Positions 897-64,000 of a stretch of DNA of 64,000 bases are shown piece after piece. The position numbers and the translations under genes were made by a program. The DNA comes from an uncultured virus (IMG/VR IMGVR_UViG_3300036781_000633) (taxonomy: Duplodnaviria > Heunggongvirae > Uroviricota > Caudoviricetes): the IMG/VR virus record IMGVR_UViG_3300036781_000633. One strand, written 5' to 3'. The notes under the pieces were generated by a model. The model was not told the origin of the DNA. It worked only from the letters and a program-made list of their open reading frames with translations, and ran no database searches. Within the stretch, counting starts at the first letter, position 1. The number at the start of each line of letters is the position of its first letter.

Positions 897-897
897 G

Positions 898-47070: not shown

Positions 47071-47073
47071 GGG

Positions 47074-47700
47074 TCAGCGCCTCCAGAGAAACCACAGCAG
47101 CGCCGCGGCGCCGCCGAGAAGGATGATCGAACCGATCGAGCCGCTGGTGACGGTCGCTTCCGCGAGCCAGTCGACCGGGTCCATGATGATGTCGAAACCG
47201 GTCTGGCCGTGCGCGTAGTCGGGGATCGGCACGTCGCGGACCTCCCAGTGGGTGTGGTTTGCGCCCGAGGTGGTGCCGACCTGATCGCCGCCTTGGAACG
47301 ACTGACCGACCGGCGCCATGTCCTGGTTGGCCGGATCGAGGTGCCCGAGCAGATGCGTCTTTCCGCTGACGCCCTCGAGCAGGATGATCCACGGCCCGTA
47401 GCCGCCGAACGGCGAGCTTGAGCCATCGGCGGCGGCGATCACCGTGGAGTTCTCGGGCGCGACGACGGGCGTGCCCGCCATCCCGAACACGTCGAGGCCC
47501 GGGTGCTTGCACGGGTACGAGCCGACGCCGCACGAGCCATCGGCGGGCGAGTTGCGCGCCTCGAGATAGCCGCCGTGGCTCCCCTGGATCAGTGGGTAGA
47601 TCGGTGGCTGCGGCTTGCCGTACTCGGGCGGCAACGTCGGGATGTCCGCGTTGCCGAGCGCCTGGTACGCGCGGCCTGCGCGCTCGAGCACGTAGGCCAT
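47074..47700 (-). CDS. M23 peptidase with C-terminal membrane anchor
   Basis: HPGLD (HxxxD), GTPVVAP, HLD, HTHWEVR (HxH), DPVDWL; TM plus RR tail. Confidence 0.88.
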   Translation of the reverse strand: MAYVLERAGRAYQALGNADIPTLPPEYGKPQPPIYPLIQGSHGGYLEARNSPADGSCGVGSYPCKHPGLDVFGMAGTPVVAPENSTVIAAADGSSSPFGGYGPWIILLEGVSGKTHLLGHLDPANQDMAPVGQSFQGGDQVGTTSGANHTHWEVRDVPIPDYAHGQTGFDIIMDPVDWLAEATVTSGSIGSIILLGGAAALLWFLWRR

Positions 47701-48878: not shown

Positions 48879-48884
48879 GGCTGG

Positions 48885-49367
48885 CTATGCGTCCTTCGCG
48901 ATGTTCTTGTCGATGGCGACCTTCCACCGGCAGAGGCCGAGCCCGAACTCCATCCGGCGGACGTGGCCCTCAAGCTCCCACGTGCACTCGAACGCTTCGA
49001 TCGAGATCGTGCCCGCGTTGTCGGGCCCACCGGTGGTCTCGTACTCGATGTGCTTGCGCTGGCCCGGGATAGTCAGCGTATTGCGACATCGCGGGCAGAT
49101 CAGGTGGACGAACGGCGGTTCGCCGGCGACGTGATAGACGTCGGCCGTCATCACGAAGTCCTTGTACTGGATCAGCGGATGGCAGACGGCGGACTCGGAC
49201 AGTCGCATCGTCGATTGCATGCCCGCATGACTGGTCATTCCCGTCGGGTCGGGCGCGTCACCCGCGAGCTGCACCATCTCGCGCTTGTGCGGGCGCGCGA
49301 GCGCGGACGGCTCGTCGCCCAGGAGGCGGCGGACCGACGGATCGGAGAGGTTGATGTTGAGCGACAT
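48885..49367 (-). CDS. Cys-containing hypothetical protein
   Basis: CPRC...C...C. Confidence 0.6.
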   Translation of the reverse strand: MSLNINLSDPSVRRLLGDEPSALARPHKREMVQLAGDAPDPTGMTSHAGMQSTMRLSESAVCHPLIQYKDFVMTADVYHVAGEPPFVHLICPRCRNTLTIPGQRKHIEYETTGGPDNAGTISIEAFECTWELEGHVRRMEFGLGLCRWKVAIDKNIAKDA

Positions 49368-49410
49368 ATCGAATCCCCGGAGAGGGTTTAAAAGGACGAA
49401 ACACGTCGAG

Positions 49411-49686
49411 CTACGCCGCCGACTCGCTGCGCGCCTTGCGCTTTTTCATCATCATGAAGGCCAGGACGCCGATGCCGCCGATCAGGATGATCGTCGTCGT
49501 CGACGGACCTTGCTGCGCGGCGTACGCCGCCTGGAGGTCGGCCGCTTGCTGCTGCTGCGCGCCGATGGTCCGCTGGGTGGTCCCGAACCAGTTCACGACA
49601 CCGCCCACCGCGCTGCCGATGGTGTCGAGGATGCCGCCCATGCCGGAGTAGCCGGGGCGCGAGATCAGGTTGGACTTGACGAACAT
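49411..49686 (-). CDS. small tail-anchored membrane protein
   Basis: GYSGMGG; TTTIILIGGIGVLAFMMMKKRK. Confidence 0.7.
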   Translation of the reverse strand: MFVKSNLISRPGYSGMGGILDTIGSAVGGVVNWFGTTQRTIGAQQQQAADLQAAYAAQQGPSTTTIILIGGIGVLAFMMMKKRKARSESAA

Positions 49687-49689
49687 GAC

Positions 49690-50109
49690 CTACGCCTCTT
49701 TCTTCTTGCCCATCACCATTACGAGCACGATGGCGGCGCCGCCCAGTAGGAGGACGGTGCCCATATCGGGGCCGGTGGACGGCGGGACCGGGTAGTACGG
49801 CATCGTCGGGGTGGCCGTGCCGAAAATTCCCTTCAGCGCGGAACCGACACCGTCCCAGAATCCGCCGGTGGGGCCGCTCGAGGAGGAGGACGAGCCCGAG
49901 CTCGACGACGCCGGGGGCGCGGGGGGCGGCGTGCCGCCGGTCTCGACGCCATAGGCATTGATGTCGCCGGTGACGTCGTCGCCCATGTTGCGCGGCCACG
50001 TCGTGACACCGGCGCTACCGAATCCCTTCAGCGCGCGACGCATCGCGGGCGAGCGCTTCACGGCGCGCTTCCAGGAAGTAACGGCTCCTTGGTTGTCCTT
50101 CAGGTACAT
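49690..50109 (-). CDS. small tail-anchored membrane protein
   Basis: Basic leader then MGD; TVLLLGGAAIVLVMVMGKKK. Confidence 0.7.
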   Translation of the reverse strand: MYLKDNQGAVTSWKRAVKRSPAMRRALKGFGSAGVTTWPRNMGDDVTGDINAYGVETGGTPPPAPPASSSSGSSSSSSGPTGGFWDGVGSALKGIFGTATPTMPYYPVPPSTGPDMGTVLLLGGAAIVLVMVMGKKKEA

Positions 50110-50110
50110 G

Positions 50111-50416
50111 TCAGCCCTCGCTTGCGACCGGCGTGGTCGACGCGGGGTGCGTCGTCCTGGCCGTGTGGTGATCGGTGGTGTGCTTGCCCTTGCGGACGTG
50201 CTTGATGACGAGGAACGCCGCGAGCGCGATGCCCCCGATGACCACGTAGGTCATCATCGGCGATGACGTGTCGGGGTTGATGGTGCCGGGCGGAACGGCC
50301 GCGGGTGGAGCGACGGGCGGCAGCGCGAGACCACCGGCCATCGTGCCGGCGGGCGCACCAGTCGTGATCCCACCTGCAGCGGCAGCGGTCACCGTGCCCA
50401 TCGCGAGATAGCTCAC
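50111..50416 (-). CDS. small tail-anchored membrane protein
   Basis: GTG start MSYLAMG; YVVIGGIALAAFLVIKHVRK. Confidence 0.65.
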   Translation of the reverse strand: MSYLAMGTVTAAAAGGITTGAPAGTMAGGLALPPVAPPAAVPPGTINPDTSSPMMTYVVIGGIALAAFLVIKHVRKGKHTTDHHTARTTHPASTTPVASEG

Positions 50417-50823
50417 TTCTTCCTCCGCAAGAGGAAGTACGCGCCCAGCCCCAAGCCGCCGAGCAGCAGCACCGACGTGACCGGGAATCCCGAGCTCGAC
50501 ACCGCGCCGGTGGTCGGGTCGACGGTACCGACCACATTGCCATTGGCATCCACGCACTCGGTGGTGGTGCCATCGACGCTCGGGACAACGCGCGCGCACT
50601 GCGACGCGACGGTAGGCGCAGGATTGAGCGCCCACCCGAACGCGCCCTGGATCGCCTGCGTGATCACGTTCTGATCGGCGGCCGTCGGGGTGGGCGACGG
50701 CGGCAGCGGGTTGCCGTTCGAGTCGCACGGCGTGCCGCCGCAGTCATACGACGGCGTGCCGAGCGTCGACGAGACGGTGGCGCCGAGCGCGCCCATGCTC
50801 CGGCGCTTGTGGAAGTAGCTCAC
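50413..50823 (-). CDS. small tail-anchored membrane protein
   Basis: GTG start MSYFHKRRSMGALGA; VLLLGGLGLGAYFLLRRKK. Confidence 0.7.
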   Translation of the reverse strand: MSYFHKRRSMGALGATVSSTLGTPSYDCGGTPCDSNGNPLPPSPTPTAADQNVITQAIQGAFGWALNPAPTVASQCARVVPSVDGTTTECVDANGNVVGTVDPTTGAVSSSGFPVTSVLLLGGLGLGAYFLLRRKK

Positions 50824-51140
50824 GCGCCACCCTTGCGGAAGAACAGATACCAGGCGCCGACGCCGAGCCCGGCGACGATGCAGATCGTCCGTAGCGGGAG
50901 CGCCGGAGCCTGGGCGGTCGACGTCGACGTGGATGTCGAGGTGGTGGCATCCGGTGGGAGCGGAGTTGGAGGCATCGGGATCGGAGGCATCGGCACCGGC
51001 GGTGTGTACACCGGGTCGGTCGGCTGGATGAGTCCGGGCGGGACAATGCCGGTGTCGCCGCCGTTGCTGCCAGGGACGGCACCGAACCCCTGCATGCCGT
51101 TGGGCCATCCTCGGCCGCCCTTTTTCAGGAAGTAACTCAC
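50820..51140 (-). CDS. Pro-rich tail-anchored membrane protein
   Basis: GTG start MSYFLKK...GFGA; IVAGLGVGAWYLFFRK. Confidence 0.7.
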   Translation of the reverse strand: MSYFLKKGGRGWPNGMQGFGAVPGSNGGDTGIVPPGLIQPTDPVYTPPVPMPPIPMPPTPLPPDATTSTSTSTSTAQAPALPLRTICIVAGLGVGAWYLFFRKGGA

Positions 51141-51823
51141 GCGCCACCCCCTGGCCTTTTGCGAAGGAAGAGAAACCACAGCGCGCCGCCGGCCGCCGCG
51201 AGCAGCGCGAGGTTGGTGAGGTTCGTCGACGATGCGCCGCCGCTCGCATCGAGATTGTCATCGGGCGGAGCGGTCGTATCCGTGGGCGGCGGAGGTGGCG
51301 CATCCGGTGGCGGGATCGTCGTGGATGTGTCGCCGCCGCCACCGCCGCCGGACGTGACTGTGCCGCCGCCGCCCGAGCCGCCGGACGTGGTCGCCGTACC
51401 CGGCGGGGTCACGCACTGGAGGAGCTTCGAATCGTACACGTAGCCTGGCTGGCACGAGACCGGCTGCTGTCCGGGCGGCGAGACGATGTTGAACTGGCTC
51501 GGGCCCGACATCGATCCGGTGACGCGCATCGGGCCAACGATCGAGGTCGCGCGCGCGGTCACGGCTGCACCGCGCATGCTCGGGCCGCCAGTGCCGCCGG
51601 CAGGACCACCGCCGATGTCCGATCCCTTCGCGTGCGTCTGGCTGGCCGTGGTGACGATCGATACAGCGCCCAGCGATCCCATCATGCCGATCATGCGCCG
51701 GTCGCGTCGAAGCGATGCCCTGGCGGCGTGGGCACGGCGAGCTCGGCGCGCGGGGTTCCGATCGTACGCGGCGATGGCGCCGGGACCGCGAGTGTGGGCG
51801 TTCTGATCGCGTTCGTACGACAT
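51137..51823 (-). CDS. tail-anchored membrane protein
   Basis: MSY, Arg-rich leader, MGSLGA; LALLAAAGGALWFLFLRKR. Confidence 0.7.
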   Translation of the reverse strand: MSYERDQNAHTRGPGAIAAYDRNPARRARRAHAARASLRRDRRMIGMMGSLGAVSIVTTASQTHAKGSDIGGGPAGGTGGPSMRGAAVTARATSIVGPMRVTGSMSGPSQFNIVSPPGQQPVSCQPGYVYDSKLLQCVTPPGTATTSGGSGGGGTVTSGGGGGGDTSTTIPPPDAPPPPPTDTTAPPDDNLDASGGASSTNLTNLALLAAAGGALWFLFLRKRPGGGA

Positions 51824-52152
51824 CAGTGGTGACCTCCGTGGTGCCCGCCGCCATGTCCGCCGTGCCCGCCGTGCCCGCCGCCATGATGGTGGCCGCGGTG
51901 ACCGCTACGGGCGGTGCCGATGCCGACGCCGACCGGGTACGCCACGTAGTCGTATCCCGACGAGCCATCGTCGTCGAAGTACTCGGCATCCTCGTCGGGC
52001 ACCACGATCACCTGGACCTGCGGAGCGGTGGCCGCTGCGGCGGCGCTATCGATGCCGGCGAGCGTGAACGGCTGCCCCTTCACCTTGGTGAAGATGAAGC
52101 GGTAGCCGACGTAGGCACCGACGCCGATCAGGAGGAGGGCAGGCAGTTTCAT
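51823..52152 (-). CDS. N-anchored membrane protein with His/Gly tail
   Basis: Ends GHRGHHHGGGHGGHGGHGGGHHGGHH. Confidence 0.65.
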   Translation of the reverse strand: MKLPALLLIGVGAYVGYRFIFTKVKGQPFTLAGIDSAAAAATAPQVQVIVVPDEDAEYFDDDGSSGYDYVAYPVGVGIGTARSGHRGHHHGGGHGGHGGHGGGHHGGHH

Positions 52153-52155
52153 GGT

Positions 52156-52542
52156 TCAGTCCTTCCCGAGCTCGTAGCCGATGAGCATCGGCAAGCCGAT
52201 GATGACGGCGGCAGCGAGCGGGTACACCCACGGGTTTTGCTGCGCGTACACGTACCAACGCAGCGGGTAGACCGCCCTGTTCAGGCCAACGCCACCGGGC
52301 AGGCCGTCCGGGGTCTCTGGGCAGTTCGGGACCGGCTGTCCGCCCTGGATAGCGTGGAGCTGCCCGACGTGGCAGAGGACCTCAGGGAGATACGGATCGG
52401 ATGCGATATCGAGGCCCGCACCGATACTGTTCTCGATGCTCGAGATCACGCTCGACAGATCGCCCATTCCGAACATCGGACCGAGTCCTCCGTTGGTGAG
52501 CGCCCTGCGTCGACGACGAATGCTCTTGCGCGTGTATCCCAT
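52156..52542 (-). CDS. tail-anchored membrane protein
   Basis: MGYTRKSIRRRRR...GMGD; C-terminal TM. Confidence 0.7.
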   Translation of the reverse strand: MGYTRKSIRRRRRALTNGGLGPMFGMGDLSSVISSIENSIGAGLDIASDPYLPEVLCHVGQLHAIQGGQPVPNCPETPDGLPGGVGLNRAVYPLRWYVYAQQNPWVYPLAAAVIIGLPMLIGYELGKD

Positions 52543-52682
52543 GATGATCATCCCTACTGGAGTTGCCCCGAGGACGCCCCGTCGCTCTGGGACGGCACGT
52601 CTCTCCGGGTTATTTATGTCGGCTCTTCAACCAACTTCGCGACGCCTTGCGTCGACGAAGCGACCTCAGGGCAACTCCAGAA

Positions 52683-53330
52683 TCAGGACCTCCTCTTCAA
52701 TGCGCCCTTGACCATGTCGCCGATCCCCATCTCCTTCCACGCGAACCACGAGATGACGACGATGCCTCCGGCCTTGAGCCAGAAGCCGTAGTCCGTGCAC
52801 GCGCCCGCCTCGATACACGCGGTCTGCTCCTGATCCTTGGCGACGTCGGCGGCGGTCTTGATCGCGGTCGTGATCCCGATCAGGAGGCCACCGACGATCA
52901 GCACCGGCCACAGCCATGGATGCGTCGCGCCAACGCCCGACAGCGCGGACTGATCCGCGGTCGGCTGGACGGACATGTCCGTCTGCATGGCCGTCATCGG
53001 AACCTTCCCTGACAGCGCGGTCTGCGCGAGTTGCACGGCTCCATTCGGGTTGACCGACAGGTTCGGGTTGGGGAGCACGACGCCCGGCATGAGCTCGGTC
53101 AGGAGGGCGTTCAACTTGTCGGCGAGATCCTGCTCGTTGGCGAGGTTGCGCGCGTTCGCGATCACGCGCTGCGCGTAGCCCAGCGGCTTGCGGATCTTCG
53201 TGATCGTCCCCGACATGACGCTGTCGTTGATCGCGCGCACACGAAGCCACTGCGCGAGCGCGCGCTTCATGCCGTTCAACTGCTGCTGGGCGGTCGAGAC
53301 ATCGGTGGTGCTGATCGCGGTGCTGGCCAT
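52683..53330 (-). CDS. membrane protein with two TM segments
   Basis: WLWPVLIVGGLLIGI and FWLKAGGIVVISWFAW. Confidence 0.7.
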   Translation of the reverse strand: MASTAISTTDVSTAQQQLNGMKRALAQWLRVRAINDSVMSGTITKIRKPLGYAQRVIANARNLANEQDLADKLNALLTELMPGVVLPNPNLSVNPNGAVQLAQTALSGKVPMTAMQTDMSVQPTADQSALSGVGATHPWLWPVLIVGGLLIGITTAIKTAADVAKDQEQTACIEAGACTDYGFWLKAGGIVVISWFAWKEMGIGDMVKGALKRRS

Positions 53331-53332
53331 GG

Positions 53333-53965
53333 CTACCTTCCGTAGATCCACAGCGCAGCCACGACGGCCGCGCCGATGAGGATGGTGGTGGTGTCGATCC
53401 CGGCGATGGTCGACGATGCGGCCTTGGCGACCCCGTGGAGATCGGCGTAGGTCGCGATGGTCGCCGTGATCGAGTCGATGCTGCCGTTGACGAAGCTCAC
53501 CGGATCCGACCAGCCCTGATTGACCTGGCTGATCAGCGCCGCCGCACCCGCCTTGTCCACGGTGGACTTCGCGTTGCTGTACGCGTCGGTCGCGCGGCGC
53601 TGCACGAGTGTCATCGCTGCCATCGCAACGCCCTGATCGATGGTGCCATTCGTCGGGAAGCCGCTCGCGCCCACGTTGAAGCCGGTCAACTGGTACGCGG
53701 CCGGGGTCGTCGGGTCGAGGAACCGGTTGATCTGAAGGATCAACGTGTTCGCCTTGTCGGCCGACGGTGCCGTGTTCGAGCTCGCCGCCGCGGCGACGCA
53801 CGAATTCGAGCCCCAGTCCCATACCTGCCCCACGTTGCAGACCTGACTGTCGAGATCACTTCCCGCCTGGTCGAGGTCGTCGCCTAGGATTCGGCGCGCA
53901 CTCGTCCGGCCTCGTCGGACGAACCGGCGAGGACGGCGAGCGCCAGCGGTCGAGGCATAGGACAT
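53333..53965 (-). CDS. tail-anchored membrane protein
   Basis: MSY, Arg-rich leader, ILGDD; TTTILIGAAVVAALWIYGR. Confidence 0.7.
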   Translation of the reverse strand: MSYASTAGARRPRRFVRRGRTSARRILGDDLDQAGSDLDSQVCNVGQVWDWGSNSCVAAAASSNTAPSADKANTLILQINRFLDPTTPAAYQLTGFNVGASGFPTNGTIDQGVAMAAMTLVQRRATDAYSNAKSTVDKAGAAALISQVNQGWSDPVSFVNGSIDSITATIATYADLHGVAKAASSTIAGIDTTTILIGAAVVAALWIYGR

Positions 53966-53969
53966 GGGA

Positions 53970-54608
53970 TCAGAGGTTGACGATGCGATAGCCGATCAGA
54001 TCGACGTGGAGGATGCCGGCGGTCGGCGGCGTGGCCGCATCCCAGGTGAACGCGTTGTACGTCGGGAAGAACTGGATCGCCGCGTTGGGCGACCACAGCG
54101 TGGGGACCGGGCAGGGGACGATGTTGTCCGGCCTCGAGAAGATGGGACCGCGAGGTGCGTTCTGGAGGAACCGTTGCGCGCCGCCGTCCTGCATCTCGTA
54201 CATGATGTCGATGATGTCGGTCGTGACTTGCTGCGTCGGTAGCGGGAAGCTCGAGACCGGGCGCCACCGGCCGAAGTTCGTAGCGTTCGTCGGCGCGGTC
54301 GGACGCCACAGCGCCATCGGGTAGTGCGTCATGATGAACGGACCATCCTGCGAGATCTGGATGGTGACCGGCTGTCCGCGCGAGCCGAGATCCGCCGCCG
54401 TGAACGCCACGTCGCCAGAGAATGTCGACTCGATGCGGCGACCCGGGATCGCGTCGATCTCTTCGACGACCGACCGTGGGCGGCTCTGCAGTTCCTGCAT
54501 CGCCTGGATCAGCCACGTGATCTGATTCGACTGCGCGCCGAGTTTGTTGTTCAGGGCGCGCAGGTACGCGGCGTGGGCGTTGATCTTTTGATCGGTCGGG
54601 TTCGGCAT
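53970..54608 (-). CDS. putative capsid protein 2 (single jelly-roll candidate)
   Basis: Soluble; N-terminal coiled coil then a beta-rich domain ending LHVDLIGYRI. Confidence 0.45.
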   Translation of the reverse strand: MPNPTDQKINAHAAYLRALNNKLGAQSNQITWLIQAMQELQSRPRSVVEEIDAIPGRRIESTFSGDVAFTAADLGSRGQPVTIQISQDGPFIMTHYPMALWRPTAPTNATNFGRWRPVSSFPLPTQQVTTDIIDIMYEMQDGGAQRFLQNAPRGPIFSRPDNIVPCPVPTLWSPNAAIQFFPTYNAFTWDAATPPTAGILHVDLIGYRIVNL

Positions 54609-54752
54609 TCTCTTCTCCGAGAAGGGATCTCGTCGACCTGGGTCGGCGGTGACTTACTCGCCGCTGTCGGCGGTGAACATCTCGGAGCAATGCGGGTCGT
54701 TGGCGGCTCGTCGGCCGGATCAGGTACCGGCGAGCCTGGTCGCAGGTCTGGA

Positions 54753-55328
54753 CTACTGGACGTCGCGCGTCTGGAGGCCATCGAGCATGTACTTGATGTC
54801 CTTCTGGTCGTCGGTTGCGCCAGCGTTCAGAAGATCGAGCGCCGAGTTCGTGCCCATGTCGAAGAAGTCCGCGGAGGCCGCGAAGTTCTGCCGAACGGGA
54901 ACGATGATCGGGCGCGCGAGCTTCAGGATCGAGCCCTGCTCCGGGGTGCCGAGCGAGAAGATCGAGTTGGTCGCATCGAAGCCCCAGATGCCGCCACCGG
55001 CCGGGTGATACCAGCAAGGGGCAACGAACATCGGCTTGTTGCCGACGATCAGGGTCCAGAACAACTGGGAGGCGACCCCCAGGTAGTTCGCCCGACGGTT
55101 GGTGCCGTCGAAGTAGAGCCAGCAGCGGAGCGCCAGGATCACGTACGTCTGATCCGACGCCAGCTGACCGGCGACCTGGAGGTTGGTCAGCGCGAGCTGT
55201 CCAACGTTGGAGTTTCCGAACAGCTTCGTGCTGCTCGTGATCGGCGTCGCGGGATCGCCGGTCGTGCGGATGAGCGTGTCGTACACCGGCTGGTGTAGAC
55301 GCTCGCGGTAACCATGGAGACGGGGCAT
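54753..55328 (-). CDS. putative major capsid protein (single jelly-roll candidate)
   Basis: 191 aa, beta-rich, AAGGA RBS; QPVYDT, TNLQVAGQL, PIIVPVRQNF, YMLDGLQTR; flanked by non-coding spacers. Confidence 0.55.
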   Translation of the reverse strand: MPRLHGYRERLHQPVYDTLIRTTGDPATPITSSTKLFGNSNVGQLALTNLQVAGQLASDQTYVILALRCWLYFDGTNRRANYLGVASQLFWTLIVGNKPMFVAPCWYHPAGGGIWGFDATNSIFSLGTPEQGSILKLARPIIVPVRQNFAASADFFDMGTNSALDLLNAGATDDQKDIKYMLDGLQTRDVQ

Positions 55329-55468
55329 CGTGGAGTCCTTGTGCTGTACGTTTGATTCGACGCCGAGGGAATCCCGGAACGTCAGGCAGGTGCCTCCTGC
55401 CACACCACGTCGCACCTCGTCACAATTCTGGTCGTAGCGGACGCCTTGCCACTAGCAAGGCATCATTG

Positions 55469-56824
55469 TTAGAAACCGCCGCGGAAGATGCCCTGGTTCA
55501 GGGAACCGGGGTTGTCGTACTGGCTGCCCGCACCCGGGATCTGTTGGGTGAAGGAGCGAGCCGGCACCGGAGCCACGAACTGACGACCCGGCACCTGCAT
55601 CAGCATCGAGTTGCTCGAGACGCCCCCGAGCATATCGTTGCCGAGGTCCTCTTCGACGCCGAGCTCTTCTTCGACGCCGAGCTCCTCTTCGACGCCGAGT
55701 TCCTGCATCGCATCCGAGCCCACCGCGATGTAGTCGCTGAGGGCCAGGTTGTCGTTGATCGGCGACACGTAGTCGCCCACCGCGATGTAGTCGCCCACGC
55801 CGACGTACTCGCCCACGCCGATCATCGACTTGATCGAAGCCGGCATGAACGCCGACACGAGCGTATCGAGGACGTTGAGGGCCGAGCCCAGCATGGCCGC
55901 GTTGCGGTACTTGCCGAGCGCGCTGACCTTCTCGGTCAGGAAGCCGACGCCGAAGAGCGAGCCGATGGCGAGCACCGGGGCCTGCAGCGACCCCAGGTTC
56001 GACACGCCCGGGATCATCGGACCGATCTTGCTGACGATCAGCCGCGACGCGTAGAGGCCGAGCAACACCGGGAGCGCATCCTTCGCGACCTGCATCAGGC
56101 CCGAGATGCTCGGGTTGCGCCGGTAACGACGGCTGTACCGATGGTGCAGCGCGCGACGGCCACGCCGACGCGACCGGCGATGCGTGCGGCGCGCCCGACG
56201 CCGACGTCGGCGCGACGGGTTGCCCAGCATCGTGCCATGACGTCCCTTGGCCATCACGATGGTCGCGCTCGACCGACGCCGACGACGGATCCGGCGGGTC
56301 TTCCGTGCCCGACGCCGACGACGACGCGGGCTGCGACGTGCCCGGCGGCGACGCCGACGGGTGGTCTTCCGCGACCGACGGGCGCGTCGACGACGACGCT
56401 TCGGGGCGGCGGTTGCCTTCCGGCGACGGCGGCGACGCTTCGGGGCGGCAGTCGACTTGCGACGACGCCGACGACGCTTGGGCGACGCCGAGGCGCGGCG
56501 ACGACGGCGATGAACTGCGCGACGTGCCTTGCGCGCGCGACGGGGCTTGCGACGACGAGCCATCTTGCTCACTCCTTTACGGCGCGCCTTGCGCCGGGAA
56601 ACCTTGGTTGCACGCTTCGCCTTGCGCGCTCGAGCGCGAGCTCGGCGCTTTCGGACAACGCCACCGCCCGCGCGCTTTTTGCGCCAGTACGCCGCTAGTG
56701 CCTTGGGCATCTTGCCCTTGCGGGAGCGGCGAGCGGGATTGACCTTGCCAATCCGTGCTCGACCACGCACCACGGCGCCTCTGCGTCCTCTCCTCCGCGG
56801 TCCGTTTACGAACAAAATCGGCAT
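55469..56824 (-). CDS. protamine-like Arg-rich membrane protein (putative genome-condensing core protein)
   Basis: About 230 aa of Arg/Lys runs, hydrophobic segments, VG(E/D)Y repeats and ELGVEE x3. Confidence 0.7.
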   Translation of the reverse strand: MPILFVNGPRRRGRRGAVVRGRARIGKVNPARRSRKGKMPKALAAYWRKKRAGGGVVRKRRARARARKAKRATKVSRRKARRKGVSKMARRRKPRRARKARRAVHRRRRRASASPKRRRRRRKSTAAPKRRRRRRKATAAPKRRRRRARRSRKTTRRRRRRARRSPRRRRRRARKTRRIRRRRRSSATIVMAKGRHGTMLGNPSRRRRRRARRTHRRSRRRGRRALHHRYSRRYRRNPSISGLMQVAKDALPVLLGLYASRLIVSKIGPMIPGVSNLGSLQAPVLAIGSLFGVGFLTEKVSALGKYRNAAMLGSALNVLDTLVSAFMPASIKSMIGVGEYVGVGDYIAVGDYVSPINDNLALSDYIAVGSDAMQELGVEEELGVEEELGVEEDLGNDMLGGVSSNSMLMQVPGRQFVAPVPARSFTQQIPGAGSQYDNPGSLNQGIFRGGF

Positions 56825-57107
56825 AGCTCTCCAGGTCCTCGTTTGTCCCCATGACCCGGAGAGGTGCATGGCGGGGCGACTCCGGATTAGGTCGACATAT
56901 AAGGAAGGTGACGTCAACCCCCTCTGTGGAAGTTTCCACCCGGACATACCGCGATTCCGCACCGTTTGCCGGGTCACGGTTTCGGATGCCAATTACCGAG
57001 CGCTCACGGTGCCGGGATCGGTTTTCGATGGCTGATCGACTGCGTTATGGGATCGTGAGATAAGAAGATCTCGCAACCCGAATATTTTCACCCACAAGGA
57101 TCGACCC

Positions 57108-57452
57108 ATGGCCATGCATGCCGCAACACGTGCTCATTCGAACGTCCTAGACTTCGACGCACGGGTGAAGGATCTCCGCTCTCGCACGGCCAAAGAAGTC
57201 GCGGAGGACCTGGAAGTGCAAGTCCGAACCGTCGACGGCGCGTGGCACCAGAAGGCAATCGGTGGGAAGAGGTCGAAGTGCGGGGAACAAGATCTCACGC
57301 ACGTCGACAATCGCTACTGTCCGGTCCGTGCAGAGAGTTATCTGGGGAGGCTCTGCAGCGATGGTTGCTTCTCCGAGTACGAGATCACAGTCTTGAAGCC
57401 GGCCGCCGAAGAGAAGGCCCGCGAAGAAGACGAGACCGATCAGCGACGCTGA
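57108..57452 (+). CDS. small Cys-containing protein divergent from the capsid operon
   Basis: AAGGA RBS; AT-richer upstream region. Confidence 0.55.
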   Translation: MAMHAATRAHSNVLDFDARVKDLRSRTAKEVAEDLEVQVRTVDGAWHQKAIGGKRSKCGEQDLTHVDNRYCPVRAESYLGRLCSDGCFSEYEITVLKPAAEEKAREEDETDQRR

Positions 57453-57517
57453 CGCGATTCGAGGTGCGCGCTGTTACTTCAACGCCGACCATCTGAACGT
57501 GGTCGGCGTTGTCGTCT

Positions 57518-58126
57518 CTACTCGCCGCCGATTCCGCAGCGTAGCTTGATGTATCCCGCGACGAGCGCGGCAAGCACGGTGATAGCCGCGCCCAACCACT
57601 TGAGCTTCGTCCGGCGCGACGTTTTCTTCGCGTCCAGATCGTCGTCGATCTTCGCGCTCTTCTTTTTTGTCCCGAGGGCAATCTCGGACAGCGCGCGCTT
57701 GTGGCGTCGTTCCTCCGCACGTTCGATAGAGCCGGCGAGGCCATCGAGTTTGCCAACGACCTCGTGGGTCAGCGCGGTGTTCTCGAGCAGATGCTCATGC
57801 ATCGCGTCGGCCTTGCGGTCGAGGCGGTCGATGTCAGATTTTTGGGCGAGGAGTTGCGCCTGGGTCTCCTTGCGGAGTTGCTCGACACCATCGAGCGTCG
57901 ACTTCGTTTGGCGCTGCGCGACGCGCGCGCGCATCTCGACCTTCTCGATCGTTGGGACTCGGGGATCGGCCAGAGCGCGCTCCATCTCGCGGAACGCGGG
58001 CGATCCGAGCGGCGGGGTCTTGCCCTCGAATGGATCGGTCAGCCGAGGCGGCTCGCCAAGCGCTCTCCGCACACCGGTCGGTGGTGTGCGGGGTCGGTTC
58101 TGATCGCGTCGATCGTCATCGGTCAT
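57518..58126 (-). CDS. coiled-coil protein with C-terminal TM
   Basis: Heptad helices; WLGAAITVLAALVAGYI. Confidence 0.65.
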   Translation of the reverse strand: MTDDDRRDQNRPRTPPTGVRRALGEPPRLTDPFEGKTPPLGSPAFREMERALADPRVPTIEKVEMRARVAQRQTKSTLDGVEQLRKETQAQLLAQKSDIDRLDRKADAMHEHLLENTALTHEVVGKLDGLAGSIERAEERRHKRALSEIALGTKKKSAKIDDDLDAKKTSRRTKLKWLGAAITVLAALVAGYIKLRCGIGGE

Positions 58127-58137
58127 GGTACTGCTCC

Positions 58138-58623
58138 TCAGCCGACGATGCCGCGGCCCTCTACGCGAAGACTACCGCCCCAGATCATCGCAAGCACCTT
58201 CGACTTGCCCTCGACGACGTACAGGCACCGGCCGTCCCCCGGAGACGCGTAGAGCTCGCATCGGGTGCACTCGGCTTCGATCTCCTCGCCGTTCTTCTCG
58301 AACGAGAACCCCAAGCTCTTGCCAAGGAGCACGAGTGCCTCGGCGTTCGCGAACTCCGGCGGCACGTCGGTGTCAGCCTTGCCGTCGGTCAGGCATAGCT
58401 TCACGCCCGGATCGATCTCGTGGATGTACGACAGGGGGCGCCTGGGCTTCTTGAGCGTCGCCGGGTCGACCTTGCCGCTCTCGTACGTCACCCACTTCGC
58501 CGGACCCGCGAGCCGCACGCGCTTGGGGATCGCGAAGCCGTCCTTGAACTCGCCGATCTTCTTCGGCTCGTAACGGTTGAACCGTTTGTACAAAGCAACG
58601 GCATCTCTCGGCGCTTCCCTCAC
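58138..58623 (-). CDS. hypothetical soluble protein in the structural module
   Basis: GTG start coupled to the upstream stop; ends GRGIVG. Confidence 0.6.
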   Translation of the reverse strand: MREAPRDAVALYKRFNRYEPKKIGEFKDGFAIPKRVRLAGPAKWVTYESGKVDPATLKKPRRPLSYIHEIDPGVKLCLTDGKADTDVPPEFANAEALVLLGKSLGFSFEKNGEEIEAECTRCELYASPGDGRCLYVVEGKSKVLAMIWGGSLRVEGRGIVG

Positions 58624-59381
58624 GTCGATACTCCGGCGCCCTTCCTTCGCGTTTTGCCGAACTGCATCAGCACCCACCCCGCGCCGCCGATGATCACGAT
58701 CCACTTCGCGTAGGTCCAGATGTCGGTGAGGTCTCCGCTGACGTGATAAACGAGGTCGCCGACGTTCGCGACGACGCCTGCGATCTTCGACACGATGCCC
58801 CACACCACATTGAACCCGGCCTGGAACGTGCCGATCACGGACGCGAGCCACGGCATGTTGCACGTGAGGTACGCTGCCGTCGCGATGGCGTTGTACGACG
58901 CCTGCATCGAGTCGATCACGTACTGCTTCAGTCCCGGCGAATCGATGACGGTCGCGCCCTGTTGGATGGCCGCGTTGTACTGCGCAGTGAGCTCGAGCCC
59001 CTTCTGGGTCTGCGCGGTGATCGCGTTGTACGCGTCCATCGTCTTCTGCTGCGAATCGCTACTGGGAAGCGGCGCCTTGATCAGCGCGTCCTTCGCTGAC
59101 GCCGCGAGTTGGTAGGCAGCGAGGATGGCGGCGTTGAAGTCGTCGGGCGTGTAGTAGCCGCTCGGCTGCCACTGCGCGTTCGTCTGATCGACCGTCGCCT
59201 GCAGCGTGGCCATCTGCGCGGTCATCTGCGTCTGGCACTGCGAGTCCCGGAACGCGCTCGAGAGCCCGATGCTGCCGGTGACGCCGCTGAGAACGTCTCC
59301 GATGTCGTCGAGGATGCCGCTCAAGGCGCTCTTCCTTGAACGCGCGTGCGGCCGGCGCCGCCGAGTCATTGCATAGCTCAT
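58620..59381 (-). CDS. helical tail-anchored membrane protein
   Basis: MSYAMTRRRR...ALSGI; WIVIIGGAGWVLMQFGKTRRK. Confidence 0.7.
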   Translation of the reverse strand: MSYAMTRRRRPHARSRKSALSGILDDIGDVLSGVTGSIGLSSAFRDSQCQTQMTAQMATLQATVDQTNAQWQPSGYYTPDDFNAAILAAYQLAASAKDALIKAPLPSSDSQQKTMDAYNAITAQTQKGLELTAQYNAAIQQGATVIDSPGLKQYVIDSMQASYNAIATAAYLTCNMPWLASVIGTFQAGFNVVWGIVSKIAGVVANVGDLVYHVSGDLTDIWTYAKWIVIIGGAGWVLMQFGKTRRKGAGVST

Positions 59382-59689
59382 CGGAGCCCCTTCCATGCGA
59401 AGTACGCGATCACGCCGCCGACGATCCACGTCCACGGGCTCGAGATGTCGACATCCCCCAGTGCGCCCGCCGACCCCATCGTAGCGATCCGTCCCATCGG
59501 CATCGCACCAGAGCCGACCTTGCGCGCGTCCGGCGGCACCCGCCACGCCGCCTGGTCTGGCGTCGCGCCGAGCGGCGAGCGCCCGAGGCGAACCGGTGGC
59601 GATCCGGCGTGCGTGCCGTTACCCGGGGCGTCCGACTGGTAGTAGTCGTACGACCGCGTGTCCGGCTTATATACGGAGTACGTGGTCAC
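59378..59689 (-). CDS. small tail-anchored membrane protein
   Basis: ALGD; WTWIVGGVIAYFAWKGLR. Confidence 0.7.
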   Translation of the reverse strand: MTTYSVYKPDTRSYDYYQSDAPGNGTHAGSPPVRLGRSPLGATPDQAAWRVPPDARKVGSGAMPMGRIATMGSAGALGDVDISSPWTWIVGGVIAYFAWKGLR

Positions 59690-59692
59690 GGA

Positions 59693-60139
59693 TTACGGTT
59701 TCTTGAACAGCGACCAGAGCGTGAGGGCTCCTAGCGCGAGGCTGCCCCACATGAACAGATCGTCCATCGAGTCCGAGAACTTGATCGACAGCTTCCCGCC
59801 GCCGCATCCACCCCCGCCGCCGCATCCACATCCGCAGTCCCCCATCCCGCTCATGCTGCGCTTCATCGAAGTAGTCGGGACGTACGTGCGCGCCTGACCG
59901 GCTGGGCTCCGGATGTACGACGGCGCCTTGATGTCACCCAGCGCGGCCCCCATCGGCATGACCTCCGGTGCGCCCGGCTTGGGCAGCACGAGGGTCTTGT
60001 CACCGAACACCGAGCCCTCGAGCGTGGCGCCACCGAGCGAGCCCAGCGACTTGGCATCGGCTGCGCGCGCCTGAACGGGCGGACCGTTCCGCCACGACAT
60101 CGGGCCGCCTTGCTTCTGAAACGCGTAGCCGTATTTCAT
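59693..60139 (-). CDS. small tail-anchored membrane protein
   Basis: Multiple LG/MG sites, GMGDCGCGC, C-terminal TM. Confidence 0.7.
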   Translation of the reverse strand: MKYGYAFQKQGGPMSWRNGPPVQARAADAKSLGSLGGATLEGSVFGDKTLVLPKPGAPEVMPMGAALGDIKAPSYIRSPAGQARTYVPTTSMKRSMSGMGDCGCGCGGGGGCGGGKLSIKFSDSMDDLFMWGSLALGALTLWSLFKKP

Positions 60140-60156
60140 CTGAGAACTCCCCGTGG

Positions 60157-60531
60157 TTAGCGAACGAAGAACAGGTAGGCGGCAAGCAGGCCACCGCCGA
60201 TCAGAAGGTATGTCGTCGTCGACATGCCCTGCGATCCGAACGGCGTACAGATCCCGCTCGCGTTGAGGCCCTGACCGGGCGGGCAAGCGTTCACGCAGTT
60301 GCCGTAAAAGGACGAGTAGACCGCACCCGCGCCGCAGTTGCCCGGGACCGGAGCTCCGGCGGGGGCGATGACGGGATCGGCGACGATGTTGCCGTTCATG
60401 TCGACGGCACCCATCGACGTCGCCGGCCGATAGCTGCGAGCCTGCCCGGACGGCGTGCGGAGGATGTCGCCCATCGAGGTGGTCGGGCGATAGCGGCGAG
60501 CTTGGCCCACCGGGGTTCGGAGAATGCTCAT
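60157..60531 (-). CDS. Cys-rich tail-anchored membrane protein with duplicated leader
   Basis: ILRTPxGQARxYRPxTSMG twice; TTTYLLIGGGLLAAYLFFVR. Confidence 0.7.
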   Translation of the reverse strand: MSILRTPVGQARRYRPTTSMGDILRTPSGQARSYRPATSMGAVDMNGNIVADPVIAPAGAPVPGNCGAGAVYSSFYGNCVNACPPGQGLNASGICTPFGSQGMSTTTYLLIGGGLLAAYLFFVR

Positions 60532-61280
60532 CGTCGGCTGCCTTTCGTAGTCGAGCGTCTCTTCGAGGCGGCGCTCCTGCCCATCAACTGATAGATGACG
60601 AAGCCGCCGACCGCGACGACCGCGACTTGCTGGATCGTGGAGAGGCCACCGAAGGCGCCCAGGATGTCGCCGGCAGCGCTCGCACCTGGCGGCTTGAGCG
60701 TCAGGCCGGACTTCGTGTTGATGCTGCCGCTCGAGGTTGCCTGGGGAACCGTCGCGGGCGCGCCGATGTTGTTCGCGAACATCGTGACCTGGTTGGCGAT
60801 CACGTCACAGCTCGAGGCGACGCCGACACACGAGGAGGTGTCACCGCCAACCGTCTGGCCGGACGCGCTCTGGACCTGCTTCAGCAGCGTGATCGTCGCC
60901 GGGCCGATGTCGCCGTCGACCGTGATCTTGTTGAACCCCTTCACGAACGCGACGCGGTTCATCTGCGACTGGAGGTTTTTCGCGGCGTTGAGCGCCGGAA
61001 AGTCGACCGCCTTGCAGACGCCGCCCATGTTCTTCCAGTCCGAGGAGGAGATCGATCCACCGCTCTGCAACTGGTCGGCGTTGTCGCCGGGGTTGCCGGT
61101 GATGTTGATGTCGCCCGATGACGATCCGCCGGAGTCGACGCATCCACCGGCCGCATCCGACCACACTTGAGCCCCGGAACAGAACACGTCGGTCATGTCA
61201 TCCGATGCGGCGTCGCCCATTCGGATGAGATTGACCGACGATCCTCGATCGTTGATGGGGCGACTGTTGCGTAGGTACAT
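60528..61280 (-). CDS. tail-anchored protein with peptidoglycan-binding-like motif
   Basis: LQSQMN...VDGDIGPAT; MGD site; C-terminal TM. Confidence 0.7.
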   Translation of the reverse strand: MYLRNSRPINDRGSSVNLIRMGDAASDDMTDVFCSGAQVWSDAAGGCVDSGGSSSGDINITGNPGDNADQLQSGGSISSSDWKNMGGVCKAVDFPALNAAKNLQSQMNRVAFVKGFNKITVDGDIGPATITLLKQVQSASGQTVGGDTSSCVGVASSCDVIANQVTMFANNIGAPATVPQATSSGSINTKSGLTLKPPGASAAGDILGAFGGLSTIQQVAVVAVGGFVIYQLMGRSAASKRRSTTKGSRR

Positions 61281-61325
61281 GGAGCGTTGCCTCGGTTGAG
61301 TTACGAGCGAAACACGGGTGGGCGG

Positions 61326-61808
61326 TCAGGCCGCGCGCCTCTTCTTAGAAAAGTGACGATAGACGAAGTACCCGGCGACAGCGTACGTGATGATCCCGCC
61401 TGGCACGTCCGGCAGGAAGTCCAGGAAGCCCTCCAGGCTGTTCAGGAGGTGGGGATCCGGCGGCGTCGGGCGGAGTCGCTTGACCGCCTGCACGCTATAT
61501 GGCGGCGCGCCGGTCGCCGAGCTCGTGCGCGCGAGTAGCGTGCTGACGTTGTCGATCCATGGCAGCGACATCCAGCCTGGCCCTACGACCTGCGCGAGCG
61601 CATCCGCGGTGTCGTCGTCGAGGTAGCCGGTGACCGGTACGCCCAGGTGTTCCTGGATCCGCTTCACCATCAGGATGATCTGCGGGCTCTTCGGGTCGGA
61701 CGTAGCCGGCGCCGAGAATGAGTCCTGAACCATCATCGTCGCGTTGAAGTCACCGACGCCCAGCTGCTTCAGCAGCGAGCGGACGTTGCGGTTGTCGTAG
61801 TTGGTCAT
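61326..61808 (-). CDS. tail-anchored protein with peptidoglycan-binding-like motif
   Basis: VKRIQEHLGVPVTGYLDDDTADAL; C-terminal TM plus KKRR. Confidence 0.7.
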   Translation of the reverse strand: MTNYDNRNVRSLLKQLGVGDFNATMMVQDSFSAPATSDPKSPQIILMVKRIQEHLGVPVTGYLDDDTADALAQVVGPGWMSLPWIDNVSTLLARTSSATGAPPYSVQAVKRLRPTPPDPHLLNSLEGFLDFLPDVPGGIITYAVAGYFVYRHFSKKRRAA

Positions 61809-61828
61809 GGCGTCCTTGCGAGTGGCAA

Positions 61829-62206
61829 TCAGTCCTTCGAGATCATGTACACCGCGAAGATCCCGACGCCGCCGAGAAGGAGCAGCGTGGTCGTATCGAG
61901 GCCGGATGGCGCCGGATATGGGGCGCCCGGCGTGTTCGGCCGCAAAGCATTACCAAAGAGCCCGCCGATAACCCCCCAGATCGGATTACTTGATGATGAC
62001 GAGCTCGAGCCGCCCGAGCTGGCATATGGGGTCGCACCCGGAATCGGCGTGCTCGAGATGACGTTGCCGCTCGCGTCGATGCACTCGTTCTGCGTGCCGT
62101 CGATGGAGACGGCCATGCGCGCACACGTATCTCCGAGCGCGCCGCGCAGTGACGTGGTGGGGCGAAAGCGTCGGGCGGAACCGCGGGGGCTCGGTAGGTA
62201 GCTCAT
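61829..62206 (-). CDS. small tail-anchored membrane protein
   Basis: MSYLPSPRGSARRFRPTTSLRGALGD; TTTLLLLGGVGIFAVYMISK. Confidence 0.7.
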   Translation of the reverse strand: MSYLPSPRGSARRFRPTTSLRGALGDTCARMAVSIDGTQNECIDASGNVISSTPIPGATPYASSGGSSSSSSSNPIWGVIGGLFGNALRPNTPGAPYPAPSGLDTTTLLLLGGVGIFAVYMISKD

Positions 62207-64000
62207 TTCACGGTTCCTCCGGCGGCCGCAGCCGCCTTTTTCTTGCGATTCGACTTCTTCGCCAACGCAGCAGCCAGCACGGCGCCACCGCCAAGGAGAG
62301 CGATCAGCGTCCAGTTCGTCGGATGTGGGATCGGGATGCACTGGCTGATCCCGTTCCACATGTACCCGTCCGGACAGGTGGGAACCTGCGTCCCACCGCA
62401 GAGTGCCGAGCCGACGGTGACCCCGGCACCCGCCGCCGCCCCATAGACTGGGTTCGCCTTGCCTGCACCCTGCGCCGCAGCATTCGCGGCGCCCGGTTGC
62501 GTCAACACGCTGCACGCGAGACCACCGACGGCCGCGACGGCATCATTGACGGCGGTCAACACTGCCTGCGCGGCATCCGAGAGCTTCGAGGGGACGTAAG
62601 CAATCAGGTCCCACAACGGTTGCCACCAAGGCTTCTGCGGCAGCGGCGCGAAGATGAGGCGCATGAACGCGGGCGGGTACGTCACCGTTTGGCTGCCGTC
62701 CGGGTTGGCGGTCACCGTGTATGGATTGCTCATGATGAACATCCACATGCCCCAGTCTTTGTCGTCGGCGTTCGAGTGTTTGACGCCCTGGCGATCTATC
62801 GTGCTTGGCATCACGTCGTAGATCGGCGGATCAGATCCGTCTGATCGAAACTTCACCGCCGGTACCGCCGTGAACTGTTGCGAGTCATAGGACAGCGTGC
62901 CGTCGCTGTTCTGCGTGATGAGGTTCATGTCGAACGTGTTGCCACCTTCGACCGTCATGTCAGGCGTCAGGCCGATGGCGGCGTAGAAGTCGGCAGCCGT
63001 CGGAGACTGGTAGACCAGGTTCACCAGTTTTGCGCCCGGATCGCCAGCGTTGCACCCGCGCGAGCCACAATGGTAGTAGGAGCCCGACTGGGGCGAGCCC
63101 GGGCCGACGAGCTGACTGGCGGGCCATGCGGTTTTATACGCGCCGTTGTCGCCAAGCGGCCTCGTCAACTGCTTCAGCATCCACGGGCGGGCCGCCGCTG
63201 GGATCTGATTGGGCGTCGCGAAATCGACCGCGTACGAGCCGTGGGCAGGATCAAACTTGAACGGTCCCACGGTGATCTCGGTCGGCGACACCACCGTGTT
63301 CGAGGTCGAGATCGACGACACGTTCGTGAGCCCGCCTGCGGCGGCGCTCGTGGCGGCAGCGCTGGTGGCTCCCAGGCTGCGTCGTGCGGCGCGCTTGAAT
63401 AAACCGGCCATGGGTGCCGCGGAGCCCATGGCCGAACAGCCGGTGTATCCCGTGCAGCCGCTCAGGCCGCTCGGTCGCTTGCCCTGACCGCGAAGCGTGA
63501 GCTCGGCGATCATGCCCGCCGACATCGCTCGAGACAGCCCGGCGTGGAGTGCCTGCGCGGAGTTCATGCCCTGGCGGCGGAGATCGCGGGCGATCTTTCC
63601 GGTCCGCGCCTCGAGCGACGGGTCGATCGTCGCCAGTGTCTTCTTCAGGTACTTCGCGCGCTGGTTCGTCGGCAGCATCTGCATGCGCGCGAGGATGTTC
63701 GTGGCGGCGGCCTGACCGTACGACGGGAATGGGTCCGGCATCGGCGCGTCGCCGGCGATCCCGCCCAGCCCGTGGAGCGCTTGGCCACCTTGGTGGACAG
63801 GATGGAGTGGCTTCGCCTTGCCGATCCCCAGGATCGCGCGGAGCCATCCGAATGCGTCGGCCGCGCCCATCGACACCGCCTGGCCTTCGTTCGCTGGCAT
63901 GCCGATAGCGGGCGCGACCATGGTGATCTTCTGCGTGCCGCCGCTGTTCGGGACCCGCCGGTCGGAGAGGACCTGGGGGCGGCGGTTCAGGTAGTGGGGG
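62203..64000 (-). CDS. large tail-anchored virion protein, 5' truncated by the window edge
   Basis: Frame stays open past 63921 to the window end; ends WTLIALLGGGAVLAAALAKKSNRKKK. Confidence 0.7.
   Translation of the reverse strand, partial: PHYLNRRPQVLSDRRVPNSGGTQKITMVAPAIGMPANEGQAVSMGAADAFGWLRAILGIGKAKPLHPVHQGGQALHGLGGIAGDAPMPDPFPSYGQAAATNILARMQMLPTNQRAKYLKKTLATIDPSLEARTGKIARDLRRQGMNSAQALHAGLSRAMSAGMIAELTLRGQGKRPSGLSGCTGYTGCSAMGSAAPMAGLFKRAARRSLGATSAAATSAAAGGLTNVSSISTSNTVVSPTEITVGPFKFDPAHGSYAVDFATPNQIPAAARPWMLKQLTRPLGDNGAYKTAWPASQLVGPGSPQSGSYYHCGSRGCNAGDPGAKLVNLVYQSPTAADFYAAIGLTPDMTVEGGNTFDMNLITQNSDGTLSYDSQQFTAVPAVKFRSDGSDPPIYDVMPSTIDRQGVKHSNADDKDWGMWMFIMSNPYTVTANPDGSQTVTYPPAFMRLIFAPLPQKPWWQPLWDLIAYVPSKLSDAAQAVLTAVNDAVAAVGGLACSVLTQPGAANAAAQGAGKANPVYGAAAGAGVTVGSALCGGTQVPTCPDGYMWNGISQCIPIPHPTNWTLIALLGGGAVLAAALAKKSNRKKKAAAAAGGTVK

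Follow-up and report, generated by a model that had tools for sequence, protein, structure and literature searches.

A conserved polycationic protein with a predicted helical anchor suggests a built-in protamine in soil bacterial viruses of about 80 kb

The DNA examined here is a stretch of 64,000 nucleotides (the window) from an uncultured virus (IMG/VR record IMGVR_UViG_3300036781_000633), and the gene of interest lies on its minus strand at 55469..56824, where it encodes a polycationic, helix-bearing protein of 451 amino acids (aa). The gene is contained in an open reading frame (ORF) at 55469..56992, and its start is the conserved ATG at 56824, with a GGAG sequence 4 nt upstream. The N-terminal half of the protein (residues 1–238; 56111..56824, minus strand), delimited by composition, codon-position differences and CGT bias, contains 100 arginines and 23 lysines and no aspartate or glutamate, for a net charge of +123. 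It is punctuated by NP dipeptides at residues 29, 202 and 237, the latter two of which (N202–P203 and N237–P238) are invariant in an alignment of eight sequences. Tandem Repeats Finder reported three arrays in the gene, one of which falls in this half: a 39-bp repeat at 56391..56479 (minus strand; 2.3 copies, 84% matches) that encodes APKRRRRRRK(S/A)TA units. The other two are built of 18-bp units, at 55640–55704 (3.6 copies) and 55767–55821 (3.1 copies).

Downstream of the polycationic half, the same strand encodes a conserved helical, hydrophobic domain (residues 239–337; 55814..56110; AlphaFold2 model and hydropathy), followed by the DY repeats (55712..55813; GEYVGVGDYIAVGDY..SDYIAVG; Tandem Repeats Finder and alignment columns). 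The latter read, in order after the helices, GVGEY, VGVGDY, IAVGDY and SDYIAVG, and their Y and G columns are invariant or almost so in the family alignments. Next come an acidic ELG(V/L)EE repeat in three copies (55640..55711; the 18-bp array of 3.6 copies), in which the L, G and E columns are invariant (n = 16 sequences), and a conserved C-terminal tail (55472..55639; VP..PVPARSFT..YDNP..GIFxGGF) defined by invariant alignment columns. The tail of the window protein reads VPARSFT..GIFRGGF and ends on GIFRGGF, and its residues P421, R423, S424, F425, D437, G445 and F447 are likewise invariant (n = 16 sequences). A preliminary description, made from the letters of the window alone, had pointed out an Arg-rich run of about 230 aa with NP motifs, as well as the GVGEY-VGVGDY-IAVGDY and threefold ELGVEE segments, all of which are indeed present. 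It had also proposed that the protein might be neutralised by its own acidic tail; this idea was rejected on numbers, since residues 336–451 carry a net charge of –15 versus +123 in the N-terminal half, which the tail is therefore unable to neutralise.

The G+C content at third codon positions amounts to 0.60–0.70 in the Arg-rich half versus 0.93–1.00 in the C-terminal half, which raised doubt over the translation of the former, and a true start near 56110 had been envisaged from the outset. The gene was therefore compared with eight related loci (seven IMG/VR contigs and one contig of a Myxococcales metagenome-assembled genome (MAG), making nine loci with the window). In all eight, the frame is open through an Arg/Lys-rich stretch of 232–330 codons and begins with a shared N-terminus, (M/V)P(I/G)L(F/Y)VNG. 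Between two of these loci, L007 and L009, the differences at codon positions 1, 2 and 3 numbered 25, 24 and 57 over the 162 codons before an internal Met discussed below, 20, 22 and 57 over the 145 codons after it, and 34, 17 and 76 in the C-terminal domain (C-domain), and this third-position excess is the mark of a coding frame. A start near 56110 was rejected on the basis of these codon-position differences and of the frame being open up to the shared N-terminus. The low third-position G+C content stems from codon choice: CGT accounts for 37 of the 100 Arg codons in the N-terminal half as opposed to 19 of 221 in nine other window genes (0.37 versus 0.09), and its share of Arg codons is also raised in the N-terminal halves of all eight relatives (0.12–0.29 versus 0.06–0.15). 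These comparisons show that the gene is real, that its Arg-rich half is translated under coding constraint and that the architecture is conserved.

Homologs of the protein numbered 75 at E ≤ 2e-32, and a profile search with the C-domain retrieved 204 cluster representatives at E ≤ 1e-3 among 1.84 billion. Of the 150 representatives listed, 120 were tabulated (the 30 left out are all ≤292 aa), and 87 of these 120 bear an N-terminal extension of at least 100 aa, with an R+K fraction of 0.32–0.54 (median 0.43) and a median D+E fraction of 0.006, so that the Arg-rich part is not a peculiarity lacking from homologs. The shorter representatives look like truncated gene calls; the short entry P0002, for example, begins 23 codons inside the frame seen in locus L005. 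A polycationic stretch without acidic residues is thus conserved in kind across the relatives and is a family-wide trait.

No Pfam, PHROGs or NCBIfam family matched the 451-aa protein at E ≤ 0.01, and an alignment of 64 C-domain members yielded, at E ≤ 1, only scattered single matches to membrane-protein families, none of them in more than two members. A tblastn search against 50,697 phage records returned no match for the C-domain or for a 191-aa protein encoded next to the gene (see below). In an Atlas look-up, only unnamed viral clusters were found, and the nearest named ones (P2_N, P2_C and P3_C) score 0.76–0.77 and serve as leads only. Soil metagenomes of four studies contain near-identical DNA (two of these studies may be the source), and three MAG labels (Kofleriaceae twice and Myxococcales once), assigned by binning only, hint at Myxococcota as hosts. 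The protein represents a new conserved family, and a function in genome condensation, of a known kind but in the new setting of a bacterial virus, is supported in part.

An AlphaFold2 model of the C-domain, built on 64 sequences, predicted helices at C-domain residues 3–33, 37–62, 70–89 and 92–98 with a predicted local distance difference test score (pLDDT) of 92–97. The DY repeats, acidic repeats and tail scored only 44–62 and are thus predicted to be disordered on their own, yet they are among the most conserved columns of the family, as would be expected if the region folded upon binding a partner. Fold searches with the C-domain were unspecific, the best BFVD match having an E of 0.35 and the best PDB-chain match (Z 7.2) being a potassium channel.

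The Arg-rich half also contains a putative second start. In all nine loci, an AGGAG/AAGGA box precedes a conserved in-frame ATG (opening 'MA(K/R)..') by 7–10 nt, and such boxes are few elsewhere in this half. In the window, this feature (56561..56577, minus strand) consists of AAGGAG, 8 nt and the ATG at 56563, corresponding to Met88. A nested form of 364 aa, with the same anchor and tail as the 451-aa long form, is therefore likely to be made in addition, in which case the gene would yield two products.

Upstream of the start, at a distance of about 90 nt, lies a promoter-like box, GGGGTTGAC (56913..56921, minus strand), which was noticed by motif count (two matches in the window versus 0.44 expected) and which may drive the gene. 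A GGGGGTTGAC(T)TAAGT-type box is found upstream of the gene in eight of the nine loci. The box sits in a gap of about 690 bp (56825–57517) that separates the gene from an upstream gene for a 202-aa coiled-coil anchored protein; the gap also holds a plus-strand ORF (57108–57452, 114 aa) of uncertain reality, at whose downstream end the promoter-like box is located.

The gene sits in a structural module (38980..64000, minus strand) that, by hydropathy counts, is rich in proteins with a terminal transmembrane helix and a short basic tail. The module includes an M23 peptidase (47074–47775), a PG_binding protein (61326–61808) and pectate-lyase-like spikes (41298–45682) that match PHROGs 'tail spike' families. 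A hydrophobic segment is present in 12 of the 28 module genes versus 5 of the 65 genes in the rest of the window (Fisher p = 1.6e-4), and a C-terminal anchor in 8 of 28 versus 2 of 65 (p = 8.6e-4); in the eight relatives, 6–11 of 19–27 module genes encode a hydrophobic segment. In at least 12 module proteins, the chain closes with a hydrophobic helix and, after it, a short basic tail (e.g. ..LLRRKK, ..MGKKKEA or ..MMMKKRKAR), and the N-terminal domains of the anchored proteins include the M23 peptidase, the PG_binding domain and paired cysteines. The proteins encoded at 53333–53965 and 60528–61280 share a C-x3-QVW-x6-C motif near their N-terminus. Gene order around the gene of interest is kept in the relatives, and the two best conserved structural genes always follow it immediately downstream. 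Further conserved proteins of the module are one of 678 aa and one of about 245 aa (58620–59396).

This position bears on the idea that the protein might act inside the infected cell rather than in the virion, as a tether that fixes viral or host DNA at the membrane for replication, segregation or host shut-off, in the manner of phi29 p16.7. The pairing of a membrane-type helical domain with a non-specific polycation would suit such a tether, and ParB and an integrase in the genome point to a temperate or plasmid-like lifestyle. However, the gene keeps its place between structural genes in all eight relatives, possesses its own conserved promoter-like box outside the replication module, and encodes a conserved, repeat-bearing C-terminal tail, which together make an intracellular tether very unlikely.

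The first of the two conserved structural genes, directly downstream in all eight related loci (74–81% identity), encodes a 191-aa protein (54753..55328, minus strand) that was singled out by its fold model and synteny as a candidate major capsid protein. It has 654 homologs, of which the 120 listed are 72–94% identical and nearly all 191 aa long. Its model is an all-beta sandwich of eight strands plus one helix (pLDDT 65.6), which appears to be jelly-roll-like. Foldseek placed picornavirus VP2/VP3 jelly rolls on top (E of about 2e-4, with low TM-scores), and among representative PDB chains nucleoplasmin reached Z 8.7, while the best viral capsid match was chain 6oj0_T of Sulfolobus polyhedral virus 1 (SPV1; Portogloboviridae; Z 8.1, root-mean-square deviation 3.3 over 124 residues). 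In 24 of 32 members of this family, a sub-threshold match to Pfam DUF7592 was also observed (best E 3e-5, about 28 residues). The second conserved gene (53970..54608, minus strand) encodes a 212-aa protein present in all eight loci at 56–71% identity, which on account of its synteny is possibly a second capsid protein. No other genes of the group are as well conserved as these two, the 191-aa one being the most conserved of all. A profile–profile comparison of the 191-aa and 212-aa families gave no relation (probability 0.3%).

The company of a virion-type M23 peptidase and PG_binding protein in the module, combined with hydrophobic helices on an extreme polycation, would also be compatible with a DNA-delivery (pilot or ejection) protein, which travels with the genome and whose helices enter the host membrane while the polyarginine carries DNA across it; arginine-rich (poly-Arg) cell-penetrating peptides do cross membranes. 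A charge of +123, however, lies far above what a pilot would need, and the high CGT bias and the place beside capsid-like genes suggest a high-copy protein. We consider a pilot role unlikely as the explanation for this protein, and note that it is compatible with, rather than exclusive of, a role in condensing the genome.

The window spans the ends of a contig of 83,855 bp (C12), window position 17729 corresponding to C12:9 and 17730 to C12:83855, and the element is therefore circular or terminally redundant. C12 was binned into a 3.79-Mb MAG, with a G+C content of 0.645 versus 0.653 for the MAG. Five related IMG/VR records, 75.6–86.4 kb long, have direct terminal repeats and a completeness rating of 100%. 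Among the genes of C12 are those for an integrase, ParB, DNA methyltransferases, glycosyltransferases, a GH25 muramidase and the M23 peptidase, as well as for two pectate-lyase-like spikes and a depolymerase-like protein.

When the called ORFs of C12 were scanned against Pfam and PHROGs, no portal and no HK97 capsid family emerged, and the sole 'terminase' match was a non-specific one of a HerA-like ATPase to phrog_2666, a family labelled 'terminase large subunit' that matches 14 of 14 control genomes and gave one weak match among the five complete relatives. In six-frame searches, Terminase_6N (PF03237), Phage_capsid (PF05065) and Phage_portal (PF04860) matched only the contigs C26 and C108 of the same MAG and not C12, and TerL_ATPase (PF03354) had no match anywhere in the genome. 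The matches on C26 and C108 indicate that the six-frame method works in this genome; the two contigs are separate prophage-like elements of the MAG, C26 carrying Terminase_6N and Phage_portal and C108 Terminase_6N and Phage_capsid. The Caudoviricetes hallmarks (terminase large subunit, portal and HK97 capsid) were thus not detected on C12 by these hidden Markov model scans, which may miss divergent folds, the 191-aa protein being the one structural neighbour on C12 that was folded. As no tailed-phage hallmark is detectable, a membrane-containing virion becomes plausible.

Taken together, these observations point to a circular virus of about 84 kb, probably membrane-containing and non-tailed, that would infect soil bacteria and whose 451-aa protein would be a virion protein that condenses the genome while being held at the viral membrane, a reading to which we assign a probability of roughly 50%. 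The N-terminal half would bind the phosphate backbone of the DNA and thereby condense or charge-neutralise the packaged genome. At +123 per chain, neutralising all 83,855 bp would take about 1,360 copies, whereas 360 copies would neutralise about a quarter. The helical domain would hold the protein at or in the viral membrane, one face of which would be lined with the basic tails of the anchored module proteins and with the giant polycation, and would meet the DNA. The C-terminal part (DY repeats, the three ELGxEE repeats and the invariant tail) would probably dock on a structural component, perhaps the capsomers, which an odd number of membrane-crossing helices would allow by placing it on the other side of the membrane. 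The long and the nested form would share this anchor and tail.

The preliminary description had likewise spoken of a genome-condensing core protein tethered to the inner membrane, and the translated Arg-rich half, the position in the structural module, the abundance of membrane proteins in that module and the lack of detectable tailed-phage hallmarks all agree with it. Several observations nevertheless weigh against this reading. The hydrophobic helices and membrane domain of the earlier account stood insofar as three helices are confidently predicted; their transmembrane strength, however, is borderline, the best 19-residue Kyte–Doolittle mean being 1.53 in the window protein (family median 1.57, with 1.6 reached by 26 of 64 members). 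Conserved charges are found in helix 1 (K11, R24 and K29), with N80 and D83 in helix 3, so that only helix 2 is free of them, over about 24 residues. The helical domain is therefore a probable membrane domain. In addition, the start of the long form is a GTG without a Shine–Dalgarno box in seven of the nine loci (preceded by GATCTC in those seven; the window and L012 have an ATG), and the use of this start is put forward here from its conservation. The capsid-like fold of the 191-aa protein is of moderate confidence (pLDDT 65.6). Cement and decoration proteins of tailed phages score within about one Z unit of the SPV1 match (the cement proteins at Z of about 7), so that a tailed virion with undetected hallmarks is conceivable.

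This last observation might in turn indicate that the protein plays an internal or scaffold-like part in a divergent tailed phage lacking a membrane, with the jelly-roll neighbours as decoration proteins. Nested gene pairs of protease and scaffold are known in lambda (C/Nu3) and herpesviruses (UL26/UL26.5), and the nested in-frame Shine–Dalgarno box and ATG in all nine loci, the conserved C-terminal tail and the spikes matching 'tail spike' families would fit this picture. On the other hand, C12 has no terminase, portal or HK97 match although three of the four families tested match other contigs of the genome, the module is strongly enriched in membrane-anchored proteins, and none of the conserved module proteins lacking a transmembrane helix matches an HK97 capsid protein in size. 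A scaffold of this kind is thus rather improbable.

A further difficulty for a membrane-held condensing protein is that no conserved packaging enzyme is recognisable in the group by sequence searches. The only large P-loop ATPase of C12 is the HerA/FtsK-type ATPase of 612 aa (window 28353–30191, minus strand), whose match to the STIV B204 packaging NTPase is weak (E 0.024) and which is located outside the structural module. Protein searches detected it in none of the five complete relatives (distant relatives may escape such searches), and it was therefore rejected as the packaging enzyme of the group. A conserved FtsK/HerA-type packaging ATPase, which would mark a Varidnaviria-like virus, was accordingly not found across the group. 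The missing enzyme does fit condensation-driven encapsidation, as in SPV1.

The topology of the protein poses a puzzle as well. According to the positive-inside rule, and assuming PRD1-type budding, a +123 domain would stay on the cytoplasmic face of the membrane, which becomes the capsid-facing one, so that the polycation would point to the capsid rather than to the lumen that contains the DNA. This leaves two options, namely another route of membrane acquisition or a polycation that is turned towards the shell. In the latter case, it would be a matrix or lipid-facing polycation between shell and membrane that binds anionic lipids or acidic capsid surfaces without contacting DNA. This alternative draws on the topological argument and on the basic tails that follow the transmembrane helix in the module proteins, which would leave one face positively lined. 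However, a charge of +123 per chain is more than any lipid or capsid surface would plausibly require; if the basic tails lie on the same face as the N-terminal half, the simplest reading is that this face meets DNA; and the ectodomains of the module (M23, PG_binding and cysteine pairs) look extracytoplasmic, which fits an outward orientation. We regard a purely matrix-like role as quite improbable.

If the protein does condense the genome, a broader interpretation can be tentatively formulated, although we consider it doubtful. The virus might belong to an undescribed lineage of membrane-containing bacterial viruses (about 76–86 kb) with a protein-condensed double-stranded DNA (dsDNA) core and no terminase- or FtsK-type motor, in which a single membrane-linked polyarginine protein, produced as a long and a nested short form, ties together genome, membrane and jelly-roll shell. 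Such a lineage would give bacterial viruses an equivalent of the nucleoprotein cores found in SPV1 and adenovirus.

Phages are generally held to package naked DNA, which a motor puts under pressure, and protein-condensed genomes are known from eukaryotic and some archaeal viruses. In adenovirus, the arginine-rich proteins pVII, mu (pX) and V condense the genome within the icosahedral virion of a dsDNA virus that belongs to the jelly-roll lineage. The likeness of the present protein to pVII and mu, drawn in the preliminary description, holds as a functional analogy only and has no Pfam, PHROGs or NCBIfam match behind it. The adenovirus core proteins are small, soluble, protease-cleaved, devoid of a hydrophobic domain and found in a eukaryotic virus, whereas the present protein, at 451 aa, combines a conserved helical anchor with an acidic repeat tail and stems from a bacterial virus. 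The J protein of phiX174 binds packaged DNA with its basic N-terminal part and is tethered to the inside of the capsid by its hydrophobic C-terminal end, but it measures less than 40 aa and serves a small single-stranded DNA virus without a membrane. The PRD1-type Tectiviridae encode many small membrane-anchored proteins in their structural operons, including a wall-degrading enzyme with a C-terminal anchor; their genomes of 10–15 kb differ from the roughly 80 kb seen here, and we know of no polycationic core protein in them.

Among viruses of eukaryotes, the unusually large ascovirus virion protein P64 (64 kDa, isoelectric point 12.2) has two domains, of which the basic repeat domain condenses DNA (PMC6163548). 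In P64 the basic domain is C-terminal and the host is an insect, and the abstract describes neither membrane-type helices nor an acidic tail (PMC6163548). The baculovirus P6.9 is a protamine-like viral DNA-binding protein that packs the genome (PMC12159748, PMC5899202); it differs in being small, soluble, regulated by phosphorylation and without an anchor domain. In SPV1, two single-jelly-roll proteins form a shell around an inner lipid layer, subcapsomer proteins bridge membrane and shell, and the nucleocapsid protein VP1 condenses the circular dsDNA genome into a core (PMC8459092). The link to the present virus is the fold-level match of the 191-aa neighbour, and SPV1 differs in being archaeal, with a 20-kb genome and a VP1 filament containing A-form DNA (PMC8459092). 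A review on phages that contain a membrane uses none of the terms condens-, DNA-binding, basic, nucleoprotein or histone (PMC6356626), and our literature searches turned up no account of a polycationic core protein from a phage, nor of the present virus group. The data suggest a built-in protamine packing the DNA of soil bacterial viruses of about 80 kb, which has not been described for phages. If so, conserved, abundant phage proteins with at least +100 charges on a membrane-type anchor would mean that bacterial viruses condense genomes too, and would point to a large group of uncultured soil viruses whose complete genomes measure 76–86 kb and which lacks all of the tailed-phage hallmarks tested.

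Some further observations concern the remainder of the genome. A BLAST comparison of window positions 1–17729 with C12 yielded two pieces that overlap by 59 bases in the contig (13252–13310) and by 2 in the window, and the window at about 4371–4486 seems to carry one extra tandem copy of a unit of about 57 bp relative to C12. Genes for a radical-SAM protein, a PAPS-reductase-like protein, DUF5131 and several DNA methyltransferases (window 21378–24452 on the minus strand and 9991–11055 on the plus strand) suggest that the non-structural part of the genome has a role in DNA modification. Upstream of the module, a 623-aa coiled-coil, Gln-rich protein and a 198-aa protein are encoded (L004:17230–19101 and 19138–19734, corresponding to C12:34829–37333). 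The 623-aa protein had no family match, and profile searches against PDB sequences found no relatives of the 191-aa, 212-aa, 623-aa or 198-aa proteins. The Cys..His..Asp pattern of the 198-aa protein is reminiscent of transglutaminase-like peptidases, and the protein was considered as a maturation protease and rejected as such, having no support from Pfam or PDB. Within the module, finally, the window gene at 46204–47070 (minus strand) encodes a 288-aa protein whose N-terminal stretch of about 195 residues is fused to longer proteins in relatives (843 aa in L005 and 705 aa in L012), so that it looks like a conserved adaptor with exchangeable receptor-binding parts.

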